A DNA stretch of 64,000 nt from Fidelibacterota bacterium (GTDB lineage: Bacteria > Fidelibacterota > Marinisomatia > Marinisomatales > TCS56), in contig JBDRBK010000082.1 of NCBI GenBank assembly GCA_043822705.1, positions 34,565-98,564 on the forward strand, read 5' to 3'. The notes under the pieces were generated by a model. That model saw nothing but the letters and a program-made list of their open reading frames with translations. It ran no database searches and had not been told where the DNA came from. The position numbers and the translations under genes are program-made. This document shows, piece by piece, positions 52,996 through 64,000 of this stretch. Positions within the stretch are counted from its first letter, which is position 1. Each line of letters opens with the position of its first letter.

Positions 52996-54564
52996 TTATT
53001 CCCGGTAGTGGCAGCCGACACTGGAGCGGTTGGCGTGAGCGGCGCGGGTAATCAGCAGGGCGCTGAGTACCATATTCCGCAGGCCGATCAGTTCGTCGGT
53101 GACACGACTGTGGCGGTAAAAACTTTCCACCTGATTATTCAGATGATTCAATTCCTGCAGGGCCCGTTCCAGCCGGTGCGTGGTCCGCACCAGTCCAACG
53201 TAATTCCACATCAACTGGCGGATGTTTTCCATATCCTGCTGAATCAGGGCCTTGTCCGGGAGCTGATCACCGGTGTACTGCCATTCCGGGTAATCGTCTG
53301 CTGATGGCAGCGGCAACGAAGTCAGTGTTGCCCCGATCTGCTGCGCGACCCGGCTGCCCCAGACCAGTCCCTCCAGCAGGGCCGAGCTGGCGATCCGGTT
53401 GGCGCCGTGGACGCCGCTGCAGGCTACTTCGCCGGCAGCGAACAGGTTGTCGATGGTAGTGCGGCCGACCGTGTCGACCCAGATTCCACCGCAGAAATAA
53501 TGAGCCGCCGGTACGACCGGGATCGGGTCGGTGGCAATGTCGATTTTGTACTGGCGGCAGAATTGCTGGATATCGGGGAAACGCCGGCGGATTTCGTCGG
53601 CGCTGCCGATGCCGGTGACGTCCAGATACATATTGGTGGCGCCGCGTTGCAGCATTTCCTGGTGAATGCCGCGGGCGGTAATATCCCGGGGGGCCAGATC
53701 CCGCCATTCGGGACTGTACTTGTGCATGAACGGTTGACCATGCTCGTCGACCAGCCGACCGCCGGCGCCGCGCACCGCTTCGGAAATCAGGAAATTCTTG
53801 GCATGGGGGTGATAAAAAGTGGTGGGATGAAACTGGACGAATTCGCAGTTCAGGACCCGCCCCCCGGCCCGGTAAGCCATGGCCAGACCGTCGCCACGGG
53901 CGCCGGCGGGATTGCTGGTCCGCAGAAACAATTGCCCCACGCCGCCGGTAGCCAGAATGACCGCCCTGGCCAGGATGCGCCGGACCGTGCCCTGCGTCTG
54001 GTCATAGCAGTAAACACCGGCACAGGAGCGCCGGCCATAACGCGCCTGGCGGTCGTTGCTGTGGTGGGAAGTAGTAATCAAATCGATGGCGGTATGACCG
54101 GTCAGAATCCGGACGCCGGCTGTTTCGCGGACAGTATTTAATAAGGCCGTCGCGATAGCCCGCCCGGTATAATCGGCCACGTGCAGGATGCGATCGACCG
54201 AATGAGCGCCTTCCCTGATCAACGACAGATCGCCGTTTTCGCGGCGTTCGAAGGGAACCTGCAGGCGGTCGATCAGGATGCGCCGGACCAGTTCCGGTCC
54301 CTCGGCCGCCAGGATGTCCACTGCTTCGCGGTTGTTGTAATCGGCGCCGGCCTGCATTATGTCTTTCATCAGCATATCCGCTGAATCTTCCGTTCCCCGG
54401 TAGATGATGCCGCCCTGGGCATAGCGGGTATTGCTTTCTTCCGGTTGTTCGGCGCGGGTGACCAGCGTGACCGGCACGCCCAGCCGGGCCAGTTCCAGCG
54501 CGGCGGTGGTGCCGGCGATTCCGCTGCCGACAATCAGTACATCAGTAGTGAATTCTTCGTTCAT
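52996..54564 (-). CDS. nadB: L-aspartate oxidase
   Basis: GSGIAG, YAQGGI, EGAHS, QFHPT, LAPRD, AHYFCGG, HGANRIAS. Confidence 0.96.
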   Translation of the reverse strand: MNEEFTTDVLIVGSGIAGTTAALELARLGVPVTLVTRAEQPEESNTRYAQGGIIYRGTEDSADMLMKDIMQAGADYNNREAVDILAAEGPELVRRILIDRLQVPFERRENGDLSLIREGAHSVDRILHVADYTGRAIATALLNTVRETAGVRILTGHTAIDLITTSHHSNDRQARYGRRSCAGVYCYDQTQGTVRRILARAVILATGGVGQLFLRTSNPAGARGDGLAMAYRAGGRVLNCEFVQFHPTTFYHPHAKNFLISEAVRGAGGRLVDEHGQPFMHKYSPEWRDLAPRDITARGIHQEMLQRGATNMYLDVTGIGSADEIRRRFPDIQQFCRQYKIDIATDPIPVVPAAHYFCGGIWVDTVGRTTIDNLFAAGEVACSGVHGANRIASSALLEGLVWGSRVAQQIGATLTSLPLPSADDYPEWQYTGDQLPDKALIQQDMENIRQLMWNYVGLVRTTHRLERALQELNHLNNQVESFYRHSRVTDELIGLRNMVLSALLITRAAHANRSSVGCHYRE

Positions 54565-54570
54565 GGCAGC

Positions 54571-55617
54571 TTAGCCGATGGCGATCATGCGGTCAACCGC
54601 CCGGCGGGCCCGTTCGGCGATTGCGGCGGGCACTTCGATCACATATTGCCGCTGCTCCAGCGCCAGCAGGGTGTCTTCCAGGGTAATTTCGTTCATGTGC
54701 GGGCAACGCACCGAGCATAACCGCAGCATATCCTTCTCCGGGTGCGCAGCAGCGATATTATCACCCATGGCACATTCGGTCAGCAGCAGGTAGTGGGGGG
54801 CGTCGCTGTCGGCCACCGCCCGCACCAGTTGGTTGGTACTGCCGGAGAAGTCCGCTGCCGCCACCACTGCGGGGCTGCATTCCGGGTGGGCCAGCACCAG
54901 CGTGTCCGGATATTGCCGGCGGACCTGCTCGATGTCGGCCACCGTGAACTGTTCGTGAACTTCACAGCGGGCGTCCCAGCCGATCATCTGATAATCCAGC
55001 ATAGTATCGAACGCTACGGCGGTTCCGCTCTTTACCGGAAAAATAATCTGTCGGCCGGTTTCCTTAGCAACATTGGCGGCCAAGTATTCATCGGGCAGGA
55101 AAATGACGGTGTCGCAGTGCAGCGATTCCACAACCGCCACGGCGTTGCTCGATGTGCAGCAGATATCCGATTCAGCCTTCACGTCGGCGTAGGTATTTAC
55201 ATAGGTTACCACCGGCACGCCGGGAAATTGCCGGTGTAACTCCCGGACGTCGGCGGCGGAAATTCCTTCCGCCAGCGAACAGCCGGCTTTGGCCGCCGGC
55301 AACAGGACGGTTTTTTCCGGGTTCAACAGCTTGGCGGTCTCGGCCATGAAGCGGACGCCGCAGAAGACGATATAATCCTGGTCGGTTTCGGCCGCCTTGC
55401 GGCACAGGTCCAACGAATCGCCGCGAAAATCGGGGACGGTGTAAAATAGGCCCGGTTTCATATAATTGTGGCCAAGAATCACGGCCTTCATTTCGGCCTT
55501 CAATTCCTGAATCCGCATCACGATTGCGGCCTTATGTTCCAGTACCGCCTCCGGCATGGATTTTCCGGTTTTATTGCGCAGAATATCGAGCACTTCGGTT
55601 TTGGTTAAAATTGCCAT
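54571..55617 (-). CDS. nadA: Quinolinate synthase
   Basis: GHNY, GDSL, FCGVRFMAETAK; Fe-S Cys in GCSLA, CEVH, CPHM. Confidence 0.96.
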   Translation of the reverse strand: MAILTKTEVLDILRNKTGKSMPEAVLEHKAAIVMRIQELKAEMKAVILGHNYMKPGLFYTVPDFRGDSLDLCRKAAETDQDYIVFCGVRFMAETAKLLNPEKTVLLPAAKAGCSLAEGISAADVRELHRQFPGVPVVTYVNTYADVKAESDICCTSSNAVAVVESLHCDTVIFLPDEYLAANVAKETGRQIIFPVKSGTAVAFDTMLDYQMIGWDARCEVHEQFTVADIEQVRRQYPDTLVLAHPECSPAVVAAADFSGSTNQLVRAVADSDAPHYLLLTECAMGDNIAAAHPEKDMLRLCSVRCPHMNEITLEDTLLALEQRQYVIEVPAAIAERARRAVDRMIAIG

Positions 55618-55636
55618 GACGTATCCTGAATTCTGA

Positions 55637-56515
55637 TCATTGTTCGATTAATAATGAGATGTCGAGGGCCGTGACCGAGTGGGTCAGGGCGCCGACCGAG
55701 ATAAAATCCACACCGGTTTCCGCTACCAGGCGAATATTGGTATCGTCGATATTGCCGCTGGCTTCCAGTGGAATCCGTCCCGCCGCCAGGACCACTGCCG
55801 CGCTCATTTCGGCCGGGGACATATTGTCCAGCATGATCCGGTCCACCGGCAGGGCCAGCGCCTCGGTCAGTTCGTCCAGCGATTTGACCTCGACCTCGAC
55901 CGGCGTGTCCCGGCGATCGTTCCGGTTCAGATAACCACGGACCGAATTGACGGCGGCCGCAATGCCCCCTGCGGCCCGGATATGATTTTCCTTAATCAGC
56001 GCCATGTCATAAAGACCGCTGCGATGATTGTCACCGCCGCCGATGGCCACCGCCCATTTATCAAGCACGCGCAGGCCGGGGGCGGTCTTGCGCGTATCCA
56101 GTAGCCGGCAGTCGGTTCGGGCCAGCAGTGCTGTCAATTTTCGCGTCCGGGTGGCGATGCCCGACATGCGCTGTAATATATTCAGTGCCGTGCGTTCGCC
56201 AGCCAGGATCGCCCGGACCGGACCTTGAATCGTGGCGATTACCTGCTGGATTTTAACGCTGGCACCGTCCTTGATCTGAGGTGAAAAAATGATCGTTGAA
56301 TCCAGTTCTTGAAATATTTTTTGCGCCACTGCCAGACCGGCGATTACACCTTCCGCCTTCGTCACCAGCCGGGCGGTCCCGCTGGTGGATTCGGGAATCG
56401 TGCCCAGGGTGGTTATATCACCGTCGCCGATATCTTCGGCCAGGGCCCGGCGCACCAGGTCCGTGACCGCCTGACGGTAGTGGGTGGGAATTGTAGCTTG
56501 CGGATCAATCATCAA
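55637..56515 (-). CDS. nadC: Nicotinate-nucleotide diphosphorylase (QPRTase)
   Basis: EDIGDGDITT, DTRKT.PG, IKENH, IMLDN, EASGN. Confidence 0.96.
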   Translation of the reverse strand: MMIDPQATIPTHYRQAVTDLVRRALAEDIGDGDITTLGTIPESTSGTARLVTKAEGVIAGLAVAQKIFQELDSTIIFSPQIKDGASVKIQQVIATIQGPVRAILAGERTALNILQRMSGIATRTRKLTALLARTDCRLLDTRKTAPGLRVLDKWAVAIGGGDNHRSGLYDMALIKENHIRAAGGIAAAVNSVRGYLNRNDRRDTPVEVEVKSLDELTEALALPVDRIMLDNMSPAEMSAAVVLAAGRIPLEASGNIDDTNIRLVAETGVDFISVGALTHSVTALDISLLIEQ

Positions 56516-56864
56516 CGATCCATTCTACAATGGAATTGGATTTATTCAACAGTAGTTTTATAGGTTTGTGACCGGGCCATTCGGCGGCTTCATATTCGGA
56601 ATAACAGGCCACGATAATCTGATCGCCCACAACCACCAGTCGGGCGGCAGCGCCATTGAGACATACTTCACCAGGCTTACCGACGATGGCATAGGTCGTC
56701 AGCCGGGCGCCGTTGGTGATGTCGTAGACATCGACCTGTTCGTAGGGCAGGATATCGGCTGCCCGCAACAGTTCGGGATCAATCGAGATTGATCCTTCAT
56801 ATTCAAGATCGGCCCCGGTCACGGTGGCCCGATGCAGCTTCGATTTGAGCAGTGTTCGGTACAT
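56505..56864 (-). CDS. panD: Aspartate 1-decarboxylase
   Basis: LKSKLHRATVT, YEGS cleavage site, TYAI, NGAAAR. Confidence 0.96.
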   Translation of the reverse strand: MYRTLLKSKLHRATVTGADLEYEGSISIDPELLRAADILPYEQVDVYDITNGARLTTYAIVGKPGEVCLNGAAARLVVVGDQIIVACYSEYEAAEWPGHKPIKLLLNKSNSIVEWIVDD

Positions 56865-56879
56865 AATCAATGGTCAAGT

Positions 56880-57677
56880 TTAAGGTTTTTGATGAATATT
56901 ACGCGCCGGTTGATTCAGGCGCAGGGCCCGGTATAGTCCGTGCAGGACCAGGTCCGGGTGGACCGCGTCGAACAGCCCCTCGTTGGCGAACAGGCTGGAA
57001 AAACCGCCGGTCCCGATCACGATCGGCTGTTCGCCGCCGAAGGCTTCGGCTGTGACCCGGCCGGTGATTTCGCGGACGATCCCGATCTGCCCGAAAAACA
57101 TGCCCGACTGGATGCTCTCGGCGGTGGTGCGCCCCACGACTGTTTCGCGGTTGACGATCTCCACCGAATGCAGTTTGGCGGTCTTGCGCACCAGCGCTTC
57201 CAGGGAAATCTGGATTCCCGGTACGATGATACCGCCCAGGTATTCCCGCGCCTTGTTGATGACGCAGAAAATAGTGGCTGTGCCGAAATCAGCGATAATC
57301 AGGTTGCGGTCGTGGTAGATTTCGGTGGCGGCGATGGCGTTGGCGATCCGGTCGGCTCCCACTTCCAGCGGATTGCGGTAGCGAATCTGGAGCCCGGTTT
57401 TAACCCCCGGCTGCAATTCGAAGGGCGTCAAGTCGAAATATTTCAGGAAGGAATTGCGGATCGAGTGATCGGCATCGGGTACGACCGAGCAGATGGAGAC
57501 CGCAGTGATTTTTTCCGGGGCAATGCCGTTTTCACGCAATACCGACCGGAAAAATATGCCCAGTTCGTCGCTGGAACTGCGCCATTGCGCCGGTTTGCGG
57601 AATTGCAGGATCAGGTTGTCGTTTTCGAATACGCCCCCGTGCAGCGACGTATTACCCACATCCAGAGTCAGGATCAT
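56880..57677 (-). CDS. coaX: Type III pantothenate kinase
   Basis: LDVGNT, VGADR, DFGTAT, TGG. Confidence 0.96.
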   Translation of the reverse strand: MILTLDVGNTSLHGGVFENDNLILQFRKPAQWRSSSDELGIFFRSVLRENGIAPEKITAVSICSVVPDADHSIRNSFLKYFDLTPFELQPGVKTGLQIRYRNPLEVGADRIANAIAATEIYHDRNLIIADFGTATIFCVINKAREYLGGIIVPGIQISLEALVRKTAKLHSVEIVNRETVVGRTTAESIQSGMFFGQIGIVREITGRVTAEAFGGEQPIVIGTGGFSSLFANEGLFDAVHPDLVLHGLYRALRLNQPARNIHQKP

Positions 57678-58918
57678 TGCTCGGCACTCCCGTTTGGTTT
57701 CAGGATCAGATCAACCAGGATTTGTCCCAACGCCGCGGCATCCGCCGCCGTACCAGCCGGCCGGAGTTCCTTTCCGGCGAAAATCAGGTAACCGCCCTGC
57801 CGGTCGCCGGTACGATCGTTCATATCGTTGGCCACCACCAGATCAGCGCTGCAACGCGATTGCAATCCGCGCACCTGTTCCTGACGCTCCGCCGCGGTTG
57901 CGCCGGACAGCAGTTTGAAGGCCGCTAATCGGATATTTTTGTTAGCCGCCTGTGCTTTGATAGTATCCACCAGCTTGTCGGTGCGCCGGCAGTCGAGCGT
58001 GATTTCGGTGGCCCGGGAAGCGAGCTTGTTCTGATCGGGCAGGGCGCTGCTGGTACCGTCGGCCTGCAGGCGGACCGGTCGGTAGTCGCTGACGGCAGCC
58101 AGGTGGATGACAGCTGTGAGCGCCGGATCCTGAAGTTTGGTCTGCAGCCGCTGCTCCAGATCTGTGGTGTCGCTGAACTGTTCACGAAAGCAGGGCAGGA
58201 CCGGCAGCTGGGACTGGACGCCGTGCAGAAAATGGACGTCGGCCCCGGCAGCGGTGAAGACGTCCGCCAGGGCGGCGCCGGTGCGTCCGCTGCTGATATT
58301 GCCCAGATAGCGGACGGCGTCAATACCTTCGCGGGTGCCCCCGGCCGTGATCAGAATCTGTGGCCGGTCGCTGCGGGAATGGTTCAGGTTATCCCAGATT
58401 GCCGCCAGCAGGTCTTCCGGTTCCAGCATTTTCCCGGGACCTTCATCGCCGCAGGCCAGGCGTCCGCTGGCGGTAGGTAGAATGGTCACACCCCAGGCGG
58501 CCAGGGTCTGCAGTGCTTTCTGGGTGGCGGGATGGAAGTACATATTGGTATTCATGGCCGGTGCCAGCAGGTAGGGCTTGCTGCGGTCGTGGGCCAGAAA
58601 CAGGGCCTGCAGCAGCGATTCGCCGTTACCGGCCGCCAGTTTATTGATCGTGTTGGCTGTAGCCGGCGCAACAATGGTAAGGTCGGCCCATTTCACCAGG
58701 TTGATGTGGCTCATCATCGTGCCGGGGGCGAACTGGTCATGGTAAACCGGCCGGCCGGTGAGACCTTCCAGGGTGGCGGCACCGATGAAATTCAGGGCGG
58801 CGCTGCTCACGATGGTTTGAACTTCGTACCCAGCCCGGACCAGCCGCGATATGACCGTGGCGCTTTTATAGGCGGCGATCGAGCCGGTGATCTTAAACAG
58901 AATTTTTTCCCGTGCCAT
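57674..58918 (-). CDS. coaBC: Bifunctional PPC decarboxylase/PPC synthetase
   Basis: TGSIAAYK, APATAN, APAMN, LACG; ITAGGT.E.ID.VR..N.SSG, AAVSDY. Confidence 0.93.
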   Translation of the reverse strand: MAREKILFKITGSIAAYKSATVISRLVRAGYEVQTIVSSAALNFIGAATLEGLTGRPVYHDQFAPGTMMSHINLVKWADLTIVAPATANTINKLAAGNGESLLQALFLAHDRSKPYLLAPAMNTNMYFHPATQKALQTLAAWGVTILPTASGRLACGDEGPGKMLEPEDLLAAIWDNLNHSRSDRPQILITAGGTREGIDAVRYLGNISSGRTGAALADVFTAAGADVHFLHGVQSQLPVLPCFREQFSDTTDLEQRLQTKLQDPALTAVIHLAAVSDYRPVRLQADGTSSALPDQNKLASRATEITLDCRRTDKLVDTIKAQAANKNIRLAAFKLLSGATAAERQEQVRGLQSRCSADLVVANDMNDRTGDRQGGYLIFAGKELRPAGTAADAAALGQILVDLILKPNGSAEQ

Positions 58919-58921
58919 GTT

Positions 58922-59695
58922 TCATTCCCCGTTTTGATTTAACTCAATATTATCGATCAATCGAACCCGCCCCAGAAAAACGGCGCCGTAGCGGCGACCG
59001 GCAAGATCTTCTACGAAGTCTACTACAAAACCGTCCCCTTGTAGTCCGGCGATCGTGTCCGGAATGGTTTTGCCGGCCCGCAGCCAGTGAACGAAGCGCG
59101 GTGCCAGTTGCCGTTCTGCCGGGGTCAGATTCAGGTTGCGGGAGCTGGTGGCCAGACCGTCGGCTTCGCGGATCGTGGGGCAGGGCACGATAGCGGTCGG
59201 CAGGAAAAAGGCTTGCGCCATGTCTTTGATCAACCGGAACTGCTGGTAGTCCTTTTCGCCGAAATAGGTGCGGTCGGCCCGGACGATATTGAGCAGTTTC
59301 AGCACCACCGTCAGCACGCCGTCAAAATGACCGGGTCGGGAAGCGCCGCAGAGCAGTTGGCTGAATTCGGTCTCGGTCACCCGGAAGCGATAATTATCAC
59401 CGTACAATTGGGCGTAATCCGGCAGCAGCACCACATCCGTACCGGCCGCCGCCAGCTGTTTTTGATCCTGTTCGATATCCCGGGGATAATGGCGCAGGTC
59501 GTCGGGATTGTTGAACTGGGTCGGGTTAATGAATATACTAACGACGGTGCAGTCATTTTCAGACCGGGACCGCTCCACCAGCGACAGGTGCCCGGGGTGC
59601 AGGGCGCCCATGGTCGGGACGAAACCGATCGACTGGCCGGCCAGTTCCGATTCCCGGTAAGTCAGCCAGTCGGCGATGGTGGTGAAAGTGCGCAT
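58922..59695 (-). CDS. panC: Pantoate--beta-alanine ligase
   Basis: PTMGALHPGH, NPTQF, RPGHFDGV, FGEKDYQQ, RLIDN. Confidence 0.96.
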   Translation of the reverse strand: MRTFTTIADWLTYRESELAGQSIGFVPTMGALHPGHLSLVERSRSENDCTVVSIFINPTQFNNPDDLRHYPRDIEQDQKQLAAAGTDVVLLPDYAQLYGDNYRFRVTETEFSQLLCGASRPGHFDGVLTVVLKLLNIVRADRTYFGEKDYQQFRLIKDMAQAFFLPTAIVPCPTIREADGLATSSRNLNLTPAERQLAPRFVHWLRAGKTIPDTIAGLQGDGFVVDFVEDLAGRRYGAVFLGRVRLIDNIELNQNGE

Positions 59696-60486
59696 CAGTG
59701 AAAACTCTCCTCCGGGCCGGGGAATTCGCCAGCCTGCACATCGGCGGTGAAGCGGTCGAGGGCCTCCCGGATCAGGTTGAAACCGTCCAGGTAGGTGCGC
59801 AGGAATTTCGGCCGGAATTCCGGGTTCATTCCCAGCAGATCCTGCAGGACCAGCACCTGGCCGGCCGTGTGTGGTCCGGCGCCGATTCCGATCGTCGGTA
59901 TCGATGACTGTCCGGTGGCCTGTTTTGCCAGCGGCGCTGGTACCATCTCCAGCACGATGGCGAAACAGCCGGCCTCCGCCAGCAGTCCGGCATCGTTCAG
60001 CAGCACCTGTTCCGCCGCCTGGCCCCGACCCTGGACCTTGTACCCCCCCAGTTGATGAACCGACTGGGGGGTGAGTCCCAGATGACCCATCACCGGAATC
60101 CCCGACTCGATGACATAGCGGATGCTGTCGACCTGGGCCCGGCCGCCTTCGATCTTGACTGCGCCGGCTCCCGCTTTCATCATTGCATCGACTGCCAGCA
60201 TCAGGCGTCGCCGGCCGTGGCGGTGGGCCAGGAAGGGCAGGTCGGCGATGACCAGCTTGTCGCCGGCGCCCCGGCGGACCGCCGTCACATGGGCCGCCAT
60301 CATATCGACCGTGGCGTTGATCGTGGTGTCGTAGCCGTGCATCACCATGGCGGCGCTGTCGCCCACCAGGATCGCATCGACGGTGCTGGCGCTGATGATC
60401 CGGGCCATGGTGTAATCGTAGCCGGTGACCAGGGTGATCGGCTCGCGGGCGGAAAATTTACGTTGGAAATCCTTGATACTGATCAT
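59695..60486 (-). CDS. panB: 3-methyl-2-oxobutanoate hydroxymethyltransferase
   Basis: LVGDS, DLPF, VKIEGG, GHLGLTPQ, IGIGAG. Confidence 0.97.
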   Translation of the reverse strand: MISIKDFQRKFSAREPITLVTGYDYTMARIISASTVDAILVGDSAAMVMHGYDTTINATVDMMAAHVTAVRRGAGDKLVIADLPFLAHRHGRRRLMLAVDAMMKAGAGAVKIEGGRAQVDSIRYVIESGIPVMGHLGLTPQSVHQLGGYKVQGRGQAAEQVLLNDAGLLAEAGCFAIVLEMVPAPLAKQATGQSSIPTIGIGAGPHTAGQVLVLQDLLGMNPEFRPKFLRTYLDGFNLIREALDRFTADVQAGEFPGPEESFH

Positions 60487-61223
60487 GATTGGGAACCTCG
60501 CGGTTTATCCAGGGTGGAATAAATTTCGACGAAAATGTCGTACACAGCGCGGAAGGGATCGTTCTGCAACGCCCGGCGATGTTTTTCGATTGTGGCCCGG
60601 TCGCCCCGCGCCAGGGGACCGGTCAGCGGGTCGCCGCCGGTAAGCAGATTGGTGGCAATCGCCCGCAGATAGGGCTCGGCGGCGGCCGGCGGCAGGTCCA
60701 GTTGGTCGTGCAGGCGCTGGAAATAATTCTGCCACAGCAGGGTGGTGAAATTTCCGGCCAGGCTGGCCCAGGCATGATAGTAACTTTTACGGTCGGCCGG
60801 GATGGCGCGGGCCGGGTTCGGTAGTTCCGGTAACAGTTCGCTGAAGGGGGTCCGGCCTGCTTCGGTGATGAACCAGATCGATTCATATACTTCCCGGGAA
60901 TACAGTTCACTGCCGAAAGTCATCAGCGGATGGGCCGACTCCACTTCCGGCAAGGACAGGCTGCCGGAGCAGTGAATCCAGCGAATGTGGGGATTTAGTG
61001 AACGATGGCAGTGGATAAAATCGGCGATGGCGTCATCGGGCAGGCAGACGATGGCTTTTTCGACATGCCGCAGGGTGGCGGTTATTGGCGTCGGCAATTG
61101 CCGGTACCAGTGGCGGTGGGGAATACCCAGCAACTGCAGATAATGCCGGAAGTGACGCGCCAGGCGTCCGTTCCCGATCAGCAGATAAGGATAAGTTCGA
61201 GTCGACTTCAGTACCTGTCCCAT
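60483..61223 (-). CDS. panG: Rossmann/DUF2520 protein, PanG-type ketopantoate reductase
   Basis: IGNGRLA, HCSGSL, HPLMTF, YHA, LTGPLARGD; first gene of the pan operon. Confidence 0.82.
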   Translation of the reverse strand: MGQVLKSTRTYPYLLIGNGRLARHFRHYLQLLGIPHRHWYRQLPTPITATLRHVEKAIVCLPDDAIADFIHCHRSLNPHIRWIHCSGSLSLPEVESAHPLMTFGSELYSREVYESIWFITEAGRTPFSELLPELPNPARAIPADRKSYYHAWASLAGNFTTLLWQNYFQRLHDQLDLPPAAAEPYLRAIATNLLTGGDPLTGPLARGDRATIEKHRRALQNDPFRAVYDIFVEIYSTLDKPRGSQS

Positions 61224-61490
61224 GGATCAAGTCCGATTTGATTCGCGGAAAAAAGTATTCAGCCTTCCGGTCGCGGTTTCAATCGAATGAAATCCAGGCT
61301 GGATGACTGATACAAATTAAGCCATTCGCTAAGTGAAAATCAAAAATATCGTGTTGCTATATATTGGACTGGTTAATGGTGACTTGATAGAACTTTCCGT
61401 ACCCTACGGAAATTAATATATCGACAAACATTGTAATTACAGTACATGCGCATATTGATCAGTACGGAAAATACGGAAATCACAATATTA

Positions 61491-61522
61491 TCATAGGGAC
61501 AACACATGTGTTGTCCCTATGA
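61491..61522. repeat. REP-like perfect palindrome
   Basis: TCATAGGGACAACACATGTGTTGTCCCTATGA is self-complementary; similar to 52952-52979. Confidence 0.75.
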
Positions 61523-61606
61523 AATTTTGGCACAGCCAGTCCGCCGGTCATCGGCTTTCCATCAGGTGAGACAGCTGGTAATCACAACCCTGAAGGGATC
61601 CCCGGA

Positions 61607-61647
61607 GTAACCTTCAAGGTCATAGAGCAAGCGACCTTGAGGGTTGC
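61607..61647. repeat. REP-like hairpin (ACCTTCAAGGT type)
   Basis: GTAACCTTCAAGGTC-N11-GACCTTGAGGGTTGC, 15-bp stem with two G-T pairs. Confidence 0.6.
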
Positions 61648-61655
61648 TGAATCAC

Positions 61656-61761
61656 CATTATTTTCCTTGCCCAGCGCCTTGCAATAACAATAAACTCCCC
61701 CGTCGCACCCGGCGTGGGAGTATCCCCGATGTAATTTATTCCAGCTTGTTTCCGGGAGAGG
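61656..61761 (+). repeat. ~106-bp direct repeat, copy 1 (promoter/leader-like)
   Basis: First 41 bp 37/41 identical to 63583-63623; CCGGGAGAGG at the same offset. Confidence 0.8.
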
Positions 61762-61860
61762 GATGATACTGAAAATGAACACATTCAAATGCCATACTGG
61801 TTTTCACAGACTAAGGGATAATATTCTGAATTATATATATGGAAGATAATAATTGGAGTA

Positions 61861-63390
61861 TTGGCAAGAGAATCTAATACTAGAATAAGGAATTATGTTA
61901 AGGTGTTAAATAGACTCCGGTTCGATTCACGCAAGTTAATGGAACTAGCAGTTAAGGTTATGCGCCAATCTGTGTCGGAATCCCGCAAGGATGGTAAAGT
62001 TGATCCGAAAGTTGGTGTGGTTTTGTATAAACCAGATGGTACTATCGAGACTGCATGCCGTGGAGAGCTCAGACACGGTGATCACGCAGAGTATACGCTG
62101 CTCGAAAGGAAGAATCATGGTAATATATTGGATGGGTCGATTCTTTTTGCAACACTGGAGCCCTGCGCGAAAGGTGCAAGAACGCATCCGAAATTATCTT
62201 GTGCGGAGCGTATTTATCTTGCCCGGATTAAGGAAGTTTGGGTAGGTATCCAAGACCCTGACCCGACGGTCGCACGTAAAGGTATTGGTTATTTAATTCG
62301 CCAGGGTGTGATTGTACATATGTTTGACCGTGACCTTCAGGGTGTTATTGAACAAGAAAACGAAGAATTCCTCAAACAGGCTACGGAACGGGCTACTGAG
62401 ATTAAAGAGGAACCGGGGAAAATCGCGCTATCTCCATTGGAAGACAAATTACTTAATACAGAGATTATTAATTTTTCTGATGATGCTCTGAAAATGTACC
62501 ATCAGAGAGCGAAGATTACCGATATTGTCGGCTCTGATTCGTTCAATTTGCGTCTTCTCCGGCAAGGTCTACTGAAAGAGGAAAATGGTGCTTTATTGCC
62601 TACTGGATTTGGGTATCTTTTATTTGGCAAAGAACCGCGGATGGTGATGCCGCAAGCAGGCTTACTCGGGATCATTCACTATCCAAATGGCGATAAAGAA
62701 CGACGTGAGTTTGACGAACCAACTGTCTTGATTCCCAACCAGCTGGAACAGTGGCTTAAAAATAAACTCCCAAATGTATTTGACCGGAGCCGGGTGCTTC
62801 GTCAAGAACAATCGGCTTTGCCTTTTGAAATGGTTCGTGAGGCCGTGATCAACGCACTCATTCATCGTGATTATAATATTACTGGTGCCAAGTGTCAGCT
62901 CATAGTAACAGAAGATACAGTGACAGTGCAGAGTCCGGGTGGACCGCCATCACCGATCACGTTAAATCAACTCCAGGATTTCAGTGCACCTATGTTGAGC
63001 CGTAACCCGGAACTACACTTTGTTTTTGCGCGGATGGGTTTGGCGGAAGAACAGGGCCTTGGTTTGGCTTCACTTCGGGATCGGGCAAAAGAACTTGGTC
63101 TGCCCCAGCCACAATATTTATGGGATCCACCGTATCTTGTACTCAAATTGTTTCGGTCAGCCGAAGGCGCCGTGATGAGTCTTGAGGAGGACACAATCAA
63201 AGCTTTAAGCAAATCGGAGCAGAAAGGCTGGCAATGGCTTGCTACCCGTGGTAAGACGAAGTCTGGCGAATATGCAGATGCTATGAGAGTTGATTCAAGA
63301 ACTGCTCGACGGCATCTGGGGCATTTTGAGAAACTTGGGCTTGTAAAGAAGACAGGAGCCGGTCCTTCTTTGCAATATAAGGTGATATAG
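61861..63390 (+). CDS. Fusion of RibD/cytidine-deaminase-like Zn domain with HATPase_c_4 (RecG C-terminal-like) and wHTH domains
   Basis: PKVGVVL, HAE, TLEPC..SC, DPDP; LLFGKEP, REAVINALIHRDY, SPGG, SRNP, EEQGLG; C-terminal wHTH RTARRHL..GLVKKTG; TTG start uncertain. Confidence 0.88.
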   Translation: MARESNTRIRNYVKVLNRLRFDSRKLMELAVKVMRQSVSESRKDGKVDPKVGVVLYKPDGTIETACRGELRHGDHAEYTLLERKNHGNILDGSILFATLEPCAKGARTHPKLSCAERIYLARIKEVWVGIQDPDPTVARKGIGYLIRQGVIVHMFDRDLQGVIEQENEEFLKQATERATEIKEEPGKIALSPLEDKLLNTEIINFSDDALKMYHQRAKITDIVGSDSFNLRLLRQGLLKEENGALLPTGFGYLLFGKEPRMVMPQAGLLGIIHYPNGDKERREFDEPTVLIPNQLEQWLKNKLPNVFDRSRVLRQEQSALPFEMVREAVINALIHRDYNITGAKCQLIVTEDTVTVQSPGGPPSPITLNQLQDFSAPMLSRNPELHFVFARMGLAEEQGLGLASLRDRAKELGLPQPQYLWDPPYLVLKLFRSAEGAVMSLEEDTIKALSKSEQKGWQWLATRGKTKSGEYADAMRVDSRTARRHLGHFEKLGLVKKTGAGPSLQYKVI

Positions 63391-63396
63391 CGGTAA

Positions 63397-63490
63397 CCGG
63401 ACATAACCCCGGACAGAATTTCCGGTTTGGTATCATTATAATTGGGAAAAACAGCTACCCGGACATTTTTCCGGACAGAATGTCCGGGTA
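63397..63490. repeat. CCGGACA motif cluster (12-bp-spaced direct repeats plus inverted repeat)
   Basis: CCGGACA at 63397, 63409, 63459, 63471; TACCCGGACATT/AATGTCCGGGTA at 63456-63490. Confidence 0.7.
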
Positions 63491-63582
63491 AAAATTGGAG
63501 TACCAATAAATATGAACTTGATATTATCAAAGTTTGAGTGGCGCTAGTTGACGAACTCCATTACTCCACTACTCCAACTCTT

Positions 63583-63688
63583 CATTATTTCCCTTGCCCA
63601 ACGCCTTGAAAAAACAATAAACTTTGCCGTTGCACCGGTTTCGGAAATCACGCTGTTGCTGATTATTGTCTATAGATACCGGGAGAGG
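63583..63688 (+). repeat. ~106-bp direct repeat, copy 2
   Basis: Matches 61656-61761; preceded by ACTCCA short tandem repeats at 63555-63580. Confidence 0.8.
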
Positions 63689-64000
63689 ATATTTATCAAG
63701 AATTGTTAAGCGGGATAATAAAAGAATTGATAAAGAATATTATGGTTTGTGTGGCCTGAAAACTCTTCATAACTAATAGTTATAGAGAAAAAATCATGTC
63801 CAATATATTCCTTCCACTACGATCAAATGCAGGTTGGTTTCACAATCAAAGTACTAGGTCCGCCGCGATTTTTGAACGATGTCGCATAAGCAGCATTTAA
63901 TTCGCTATAATCCATTTCCGGTTAATTGGCAATGATTCTGATTTGACCAGTAAAGTCTACGTTGGTTACGTTGACCGATCAATCGTTTTTTTCTTTCCTT

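Follow-up and report, generated by a model that had tools for sequence, protein, structure and literature searches.

Proteins that combine a Schlafen (SLFN) domain with PF13749 have been named Schlatpases, and 60,692 SLFN-GHKL proteins were counted in the same study (10.64898/2026.05.29.728809). In RzAgo, residues E314 and N318 bind ATP-Mg, the tetramers are driven by ATP, and the E314A substitution abolishes protection; the nucleic-acid-bound RzAgo filament is inactive (10.64898/2026.05.29.728809). Of prokaryotic Schlafens, 69.6% lie near defence genes, and among the seven Schlafen constructs tested only the DUF262 and Ig-like fusions protected, whereas the HisKinase fusions did not (PMC13056530). 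Schlafen-kinase-wHTH proteins have been called backup effectors of BREX (PMC12839542), and PrrC is embedded in a type I restriction-modification (R-M) operon as a second line of defence (PMC3710099). The RibD clade of deaminases was described with reductase fusions only in the part of Iyer 2011 available to us.

The gene analysed here lies near one end of the window, by which we mean the whole stretch of 64,000 nucleotides from a contig of a Fidelibacterota bacterium. Its ORF was confirmed to consist of a RibD-like Zn deaminase, a GHKL ATPase body and a winged helix-turn-helix (wHTH) domain, in that order. The features of the locus are as follows, with residues numbered throughout in the 509-aa frame.

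61657-61770, + strand: upstream copy of an about 110-bp leader repeat, a probable cassette promoter/leader.
61861..63390, + strand: whole ORF, 509 aa from TTG; 495 aa from the probable start GTG at 61903.
61936..62385, + strand: RibD-related Zn deaminase domain (aa about 26-175), based on Pfam, conservation in 69 homologues, the RibG fold match and its own clade; residues H75, E77, C102 and C114, the family-specific R67, R107 and K111, and D132.
62386..63180, + strand: Schlatpase-type GHKL ATPase body (aa about 176-440), based on PF13749, conservation, the DIP2311 match and the role of RzAgo E314/N318; E327-x3-N331 box, S358-P-G360, R381-N382 and G401.
63181..63387, + strand: C-terminal wHTH, based on DSSP, wHTH fold matches and covariation.
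63295-63333, + strand: third (recognition) helix of the wHTH, aa 479-491, with the specificity residues R483 and R484.
63395..63427, + strand: operator-like unit 1, its 9-bp motif X being about the ATCCGGACA class.
63457..63489, + strand: operator-like unit 2, 62 bp after unit 1.
63583-63697, + strand: downstream copy of the leader repeat, probably serving the next cassette, which the contig-end repeat truncates.

The GTG codon at 61903 is probably the real start, since most close homologues are about 495 aa long and, in a relative of 89% identity, an in-frame stop lies shortly before this point. In the Pfam search, dCMP_cyt_deam_1 (PF00383) matched aa 26-129 (E 7e-9) and HATPase_c_4 (PF13749) matched aa 342-419 (E 1e-13), and neither RibD_C nor AlbA_2 matched the ORF. 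The SLFN/AlbA_2 nuclease domain (PF04326) gave no match at E<=0.1, and aa 26-175 form the deaminase instead. The motifs pointed out in the initial annotation were all present in the translation: H75-A-E77, TLEPC102-x11-C114 and DPDP, which make up an intact CDA-fold site, and REAVINALIHRDY, SPGG, RNP and EQGLG of the ATPase body. The AlphaFold model of the protein (pLDDT 91.9) matched DIP2311 (PDB 3LMM) with Z 23.1, RibG (PDB 2B3Z) with Z 19.9 and an rmsd of 1.9, and TadA with Z 14. The C-terminus of the model matched wHTH proteins (Z about 9-10), and Pfam HTH matches in homologues also support a wHTH at this end. The fold comparison, which had been proposed as a check, agrees with the three-part layout.

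Conservation was analysed in 69 full-length sequences, which comprised the query and representatives picked from the 50%-representative search. H75, E77, C102 and C114 were kept in 69, 69, 68 and 68 of the 69 sequences, respectively, and E327, N331, G360, N382 and G401 in all of them. E327 and N331 share the E-x3-N spacing of RzAgo E314/N318. The same GHKL body, E-x3-N ATP motif and C-terminal wHTH are found in Schlatpases, in pSlfn HisKinase-HTH proteins and in DIP2311 (3LMM), and the Schlatpase class has the same R-M/defence-island habitat. The Schlatpase class, however, has a Schlafen RNase where this family has a RibD-derived deaminase, in agreement with the earlier proposal that the effector was swapped on a Schlafen chassis. 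ATP binding and oligomerisation of the present protein may be expected by homology.

The deaminase domain shares the CDA fold, the HxE/PC..C zinc site and the DP motif with RibD/RibG (PDB 2B3Z, 4G3M), but differs from them in several respects. The score against TIGR00326 (RibD) was 56.2 bits, well below the cut-off of 156.35, and together with the lack of a RibD_C match this upheld the view of a deaminase without the RibD reductase. The His of the RibD 'GxH' is replaced by R67 in the family (68/69), and the position of the 'PNP' Asn is variable. The His in the CxxC insert, listed in Table 1 of PMC3239186, is also absent in the family, although only four of the eight control RibDs keep it. In a quick tree, the family deaminases and one prophage fusion formed a long branch apart from the eight control RibDs (SH-aLRT 100). 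In BsRibG, Lys79 binds the phosphate, and Asp101 and Asn103 bind the ribose hydroxyls (PMC8256712). The residues aligned with them are R107 (kept in 65/69), D132 (68/69) and D/N134 (56/69), respectively. Since the pocket keeps the phosphate- and ribose-binding positions of RibG, a free ribonucleotide-like substrate is favoured over internal DNA editing. We infer that the substrate would carry a ribose-5'-phosphate, with a base different from that of the RibD substrate.

The prophage fusion (L112:7959-8876, on a viral contig) joins a deaminase of the same clade to an unrelated C-terminal domain, and lies near an AbiLi/AriA-like ATPase. This fusion suggests that the deaminase is a mobile effector module. 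Longer deaminase fusions (847-2415 aa) were not found among 181 candidates, which is weak evidence.

In the 93%-complete host genome, which has two copies of the family, no ribA, ribH, ribE or full ribD was found, and there was one stand-alone RibD_C protein. No rib-gene Pfam match occurred in the 23 recurring neighbour clusters of the homologues. With the reductase missing as well, these facts agree with the absence of a riboflavin role, as had been supposed.

The word-indexed search gave 2258 matches among 8000 candidates, and both PF00383 and PF13749 were present in all of 120 among the matches listed. The 50%-representative search gave 231 matches at E<=1e-30, and five cluster sets with the deaminase-GHKL architecture (53-457 members) were found in the ESM Atlas. 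Full-length copies occurred in 1 of 40 relatives, in 6 of 401 genomes of the same phylum (seed included; the seventh match was chassis-only), and in 4/401, 4/401 and 1/301 genomes of other samples (seed genomes included). The family is rare (about 1% of the genomes sampled), patchy and mobile. No family member was found on plasmids at E<=1e-30; GenBank phages gave chassis-only matches and no full-length copy, and the 54 related loci in IMG/VR, of which the L112 fusion is one, included no full-length copy. Some homologues carry extra N-terminal domains or an internal insertion (P0174 and P0269, each with an N-terminal region of about 190 aa; P0138 and P0169; P0132 and P0209). These parts gave no Pfam match, and one type of extra N-terminal domain begins with a Zn-ribbon-like CxxC pair.

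The GC content of the gene was 0.46 (GC3 0.41), compared with 0.59-0.64 (GC3 0.68-0.80) in the three neighbouring genes measured and 0.527 in the genome. The gene is AT-richer than its neighbours, as first noticed, and the repeats said to bracket it are real, namely the two about 110-bp copies listed above. By eye, the leader repeat contains TTGCC-N-TAAACT promoter-like and GGGAGAGG SD-like motifs; a consensus promoter scan did not call the promoter-like motif on the + strand. The repeat looks like a portable cassette leader. It is lineage-specific, with ten host copies at E<=0.05 (among them copies on C57, C136, C13, C70 and C40), and most host copies precede AT-rich genes, including those for an HNH-like protein and a ThsB/TIR-like pair on C57. 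Copies of the leader repeat in a related genome (L003:32-141 and 1898-2007) likewise bracket the orthologue there.

This copy is flanked by a pan/nad operon and the IS-like end of the contig and is not in a defence island. The housekeeping run upstream (52996-61223, - strand) reads DUF2520-panB-panC-coaBC-coaX-panD-nadC-nadA-nadB from the translations, with Pfam confirmation for DUF2520 only. A perfect 32-bp palindrome at 61491-61522 is REP-like, and related palindromes occur on several further contigs. Beyond the gene, the contig continues for 610 bp and terminates in a repeated IS-like sequence. The stretch of about 140 bp at 63860-64000 recurs with 99-100% identity on four other contigs, close to or at the contig end; it is probably the end of an IS at which the assembly broke, and it cuts a small ORF that starts at 63797. 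Rfam gave no match at E<=1 over 61200-64000, and a sequencing-run search gave only small shares (<=0.17). The description of the gene as 'lone' held only in part: no rib genes lie nearby, but the contig ends shortly after the gene and the second host copy, on contig C71, is a 40%-identical paralogue. The paralogue (L001:6779-8284; GC 0.40) has its own TTGGACA-class element and lies among non-defence genes, and downstream of it is what we take to be a possible degenerate attC-like sequence.

The neighbourhoods of homologues were analysed in 88 loci, nine from genome contigs and 79 of the best 80 of 587 metagenome loci (L032 was dropped as a copy of L004), which collapsed to 79 independent groups. 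HsdM/S recurred in 26 of the 79 groups, two HsdR types in 11 and 8, and RadC in 14; radC lay in 16/79 loci, mostly directly downstream of the family gene. YhcG, Fic, HipA-DUF3037 and GmrSD were other recurring neighbours. In a uniform tblastn search, type I R-M was found in 29/79 loci, and in 15/35 of those with at least 6 kb of flank, compared with 0/9 loci of the ribD control, which is small and drawn from one order, and 3/11 chassis-only loci. A random-window control for R-M was uninformative because the host genome has no type I R-M match. PADLOC, applied to 101 of roughly 307 singletons among the neighbours (two nearest genes, at least 130 aa), added type IIG/III R-M, BREX/DISARM helicase, CBASS, DarG, LmuA and PDC candidates; on all 91 control proteins it gave two matches (in 2/9 control loci), one of them a desaturase. 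Taken as a union, at least 43/79 loci had a defence gene, mostly type I R-M (22/35 with at least 6 kb of flank). The family gene lay inside hsd operons in five loci. No obligatory neighbour gene was found among the 79 loci, and the genes downstream differ between loci and often lie on the other strand. The predicted defence association was thus found for the homologues but not for this copy, which is outside any defence island. In PADLOC the ORF itself matched only the Aga/pAgo chassis and, weakly, HTH-type profiles, and no named deaminase defence system. A gene for a DSPc phosphatase was observed in six independent loci (L083, L104, L108, L111 and others), mostly directly upstream of the family gene and often beside hsd genes.

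An operator-like element follows the gene. Each unit has the form X-N3-X-N3-inverted X, where X is 9 bp and the total length is 33 bp. Loci whose stop is intact and followed by at least 130 nt were searched for the element, taking one locus from each group. Of these 64 loci, the window and C71 included, 62 carry it within 190 nt of the stop, compared with 14/3348 background windows. Two units were present in 53/62 loci under relaxed scoring, with a spacing of 62 bp in 44 and 61 bp in 6. The spacing of 62 bp, which is about six helical turns, also occurs in the 40%-identical paralogue. Motif copies upstream of the gene showed no excess (5/62, control 3.9), and the element is therefore not a plain promoter operator. 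This lack of upstream enrichment and the little G-U bias in the arm mismatches suggest that it works as double-stranded DNA. Its reading as an RNA hairpin was set aside (G-U 39 and A-C 26 mismatches; fixed spacer length). In several loci, including L040, L047, L055, L060, L066, L067 and L188, leftover operator-like sites of other specificity classes are stacked downstream, before radC or the next gene.

The relationship between the wHTH and the element was analysed in 61 loci, leaving out C71 and two loci without a strict unit. Residue 484 corresponded to bases 7-8 of the motif in 61/61 loci (R with AC in 41, N with CC in 15, Y/F with CA in 5). Residue 483 corresponded to base 5 (R/K with G in 23, Q with G in 1, Q/L/N with C in 35, M/L with T in 2), so that whether this residue is R/K or another predicts whether base 5 is G in 60/61 loci. 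Residues 484 and 483 each had the highest mutual information of all columns; base 4 had no clean residue determinant. There were about 12 motif classes, which differ mostly by transversions. We infer from this covariation that the wHTH would bind the element sequence-specifically.

The strength of the covariation should be read with the linkage in mind, since the helix is about 90 bp from the element and the two move together, which inflates it. On the enzyme-body tree the motif class needed 33 changes (minimum 11, shuffled 38.4), and on a tree of the wHTH only, built without columns 483 and 484, the combined label needed 14 (minimum 13); both are quick trees. Pairs whose bodies are 96-98% identical reach an identity of only 38-72% in the wHTH and carry different motifs. 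For example, L038 and L039 are 96, 91 and 38% identical in the deaminase, GHKL and wHTH parts, respectively, and their motifs differ. These facts suggest that helix and element are exchanged together, as a single block. Six changes were counted on the wHTH tree for residue 484 and six for bases 7-8, but only one or two independent pairs fall on well-supported branches; all of these are concordant, without reaching significance. The element was also present in 11/11 loci with an intact wHTH from a held-out set of 12 (three were recognised by eye). The seven held-out loci at >=50% identity all fit both rules. Of the four at <=43% identity, two fit the 484 rule and two (L186 and L187) miss it; the 483 rule is missed by L198 and by C71. 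L199, which stops before the wHTH, showed no element in 119 nt. The downstream element and the swapped wHTH specificity block go beyond the initial annotation, which had been made from the letters alone.

The arrangement suggests that the deaminase-GHKL-wHTH gene encodes a predicted defence protein that is restrained by its own DNA. Our preferred reading, to which we give about an even chance, is a single-gene mobile backup defence effector that is anchored at its own operator and becomes active once released. The wHTH would dock sequence-specifically on the six half-sites of the two units, 62 bp apart, after its own gene, as the covariation implies, and the GHKL body would bind ATP and drive oligomerisation as in RzAgo. 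Docking on the operator may hold the oligomer off, and loss of the site or competition for it may release the oligomer. This step, proposed by analogy with the inactive nucleic-acid-bound RzAgo filament and with PrrC as backup of type I R-M, is speculative and, taken alone, less likely than not. Candidate triggers of the release are phage-driven breakdown of host DNA, DNA-mimic anti-restriction proteins and loss of the cassette. The active enzyme would then deaminate a substrate bearing ribose-5'-phosphate, for which a free ribonucleotide or the 3' end of an RNA is the likeliest candidate. Arrest of the cell by the enzyme would serve as a second line behind R-M. The choice of a ribonucleotide as the target is speculative. 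The swap of the wHTH and operator block would create orthogonal specificity groups. A bolder form of the reading is a one-gene immune or addiction module with the adjacent DNA site as 'antitoxin', activated by destruction of host DNA or by DNA mimics and diversified by block swaps into orthogonal groups, a logic that may extend to tens of thousands of minimal Schlafen-GHKL-wHTH proteins; this form we regard as doubtful.

It is worth noting that there are other interpretations. wHTH-operator pairs are normally regulatory, radC is frequent and mostly directly downstream, and DIP2311-like proteins are annotated as regulators. The protein may thus be a defence effector triggered by another phage cue, with the wHTH-operator pair only tuning expression, either as a transcription roadblock at the 3' end or by control of radC/hsdR. 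No excess of operator copies was found at the gene's own promoter, however, the downstream genes are variable and often on the opposite strand, and simple autoregulation leaves the repeated swapping of specificity unexplained, so that we consider this reading unlikely. Rapid orthogonal specificity switching would fit a selfish addiction module in which the DNA is the 'antitoxin'. Such a module would be inert with its cognate site, kill cells that lose the cassette and stabilise R-M islands, with no direct role against phage. The leftover sites of other specificity (L040, L047, L055, L060, L066 and L188), which resemble orphan immunity, and the cassette-like flanks are also in its favour. The family was nevertheless not found on plasmids (E<=1e-30), and a related SLFN-GHKL-Ago is a shown anti-phage protein (10.64898/2026.05.29.728809); we hold it to be somewhat less probable than mere tuning of expression.

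A site-specific DNA anchor, the basic residues R67, R71, R107 and K111 around the pocket and the TadA match (Z 14) could also indicate an editor or mutator tethered to the locus, in which the wHTH anchors the deaminase beside R-M genes to edit local DNA or RNA. The element arms, however, showed no excess of C>T or G>A (21/973 C, 24/779 G; A>G 47/714), the motif classes differ mostly by transversions and the Asp that binds the ribose diol is kept, which makes local editing very improbable. The protein could, lastly, be a deaminase of the riboflavin pathway or a metabolic regulator that responds to a RibD-like substrate. In favour of this, the solved deaminases closest to it are RibD/RibG, the positions equivalent to K79 and D101 are kept, and ribA is present in 5/5 other hosts checked. 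The missing reductase, the low TIGR00326 score (56 bits versus 156), the long branch apart from RibD, the host with two copies but without ribA, ribH, ribE or full ribD, and the 0/23 neighbour clusters with a rib gene leave this last interpretation hardly credible.

The protein can be described as a Schlatpase with a swapped effector, and its mode of control may be new. Deaminases also act in the nucleotide-targeting immunity of the dCTP deaminase/AvcD, RADAR RdrB and Kongming systems, and in the case of AvcD the enzyme is kept inactive by a nucleic-acid antitoxin, an RNA. The deaminases of these systems belong to a different clade, and the present ORF has no PADLOC match to any of them and no conserved partner gene; a GHKL-wHTH body and a DNA element stand here in place of the RNA antitoxin or AAA+ partner. 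PrrC/RloC likewise has an NTPase-regulated effector, a suicide effector in that case (PMC3710099), but it combines an ABC ATPase with HEPN, whereas the present protein combines GHKL, deaminase and wHTH, and its R-M linkage is frequent, not obligatory. The element, with its residue-to-base code, has a fixed layout of two direct-plus-inverted units. The word 'deaminase' is absent from the main text of 10.64898/2026.05.29.728809, and neither a deaminase fusion nor such an element is mentioned in the available parts of that source, PMC13056530 and PMC12839542. Among titles and abstract openings no paper on the deaminase-GHKL-wHTH fusion or its element was found; the supplementary tables of PMC13056530, PMC3239186 and 10.64898/2026.05.29.728809 could list the architecture. 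The available parts of Krishnan 2018 (PMC5889660) and of the SoFic study (PMC12249575) held nothing relevant to the fusion.

With this family, a RibD-derived deaminase joins the list of candidate immune effectors. The two-residue/base code across about 12 motif classes provides a natural set of orthogonal predicted DNA-binding pairs, and the wHTH of the Schlafen-GHKL-wHTH chassis, which is very common, gains in the element a concrete candidate ligand. If Schlafen-GHKL-wHTH proteins need a DNA element in cis, cloning for phage screens could have to change. Direct repeats with a 12-bp period, lying after the stop or encoding tetrapeptide repeats of a linker, were seen in many of 60 chassis-only genes (by eye, uncounted, in part of the set), which suggests that the principle of a cis element may be chassis-wide. 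These repeats are candidate operators for the whole Schlafen-GHKL-wHTH class. The chassis-only GHKL-wHTH genes in which 12-bp-period repeats were observed include L175, L178, L123, L134, L161, L176, L119 and L179, among others.
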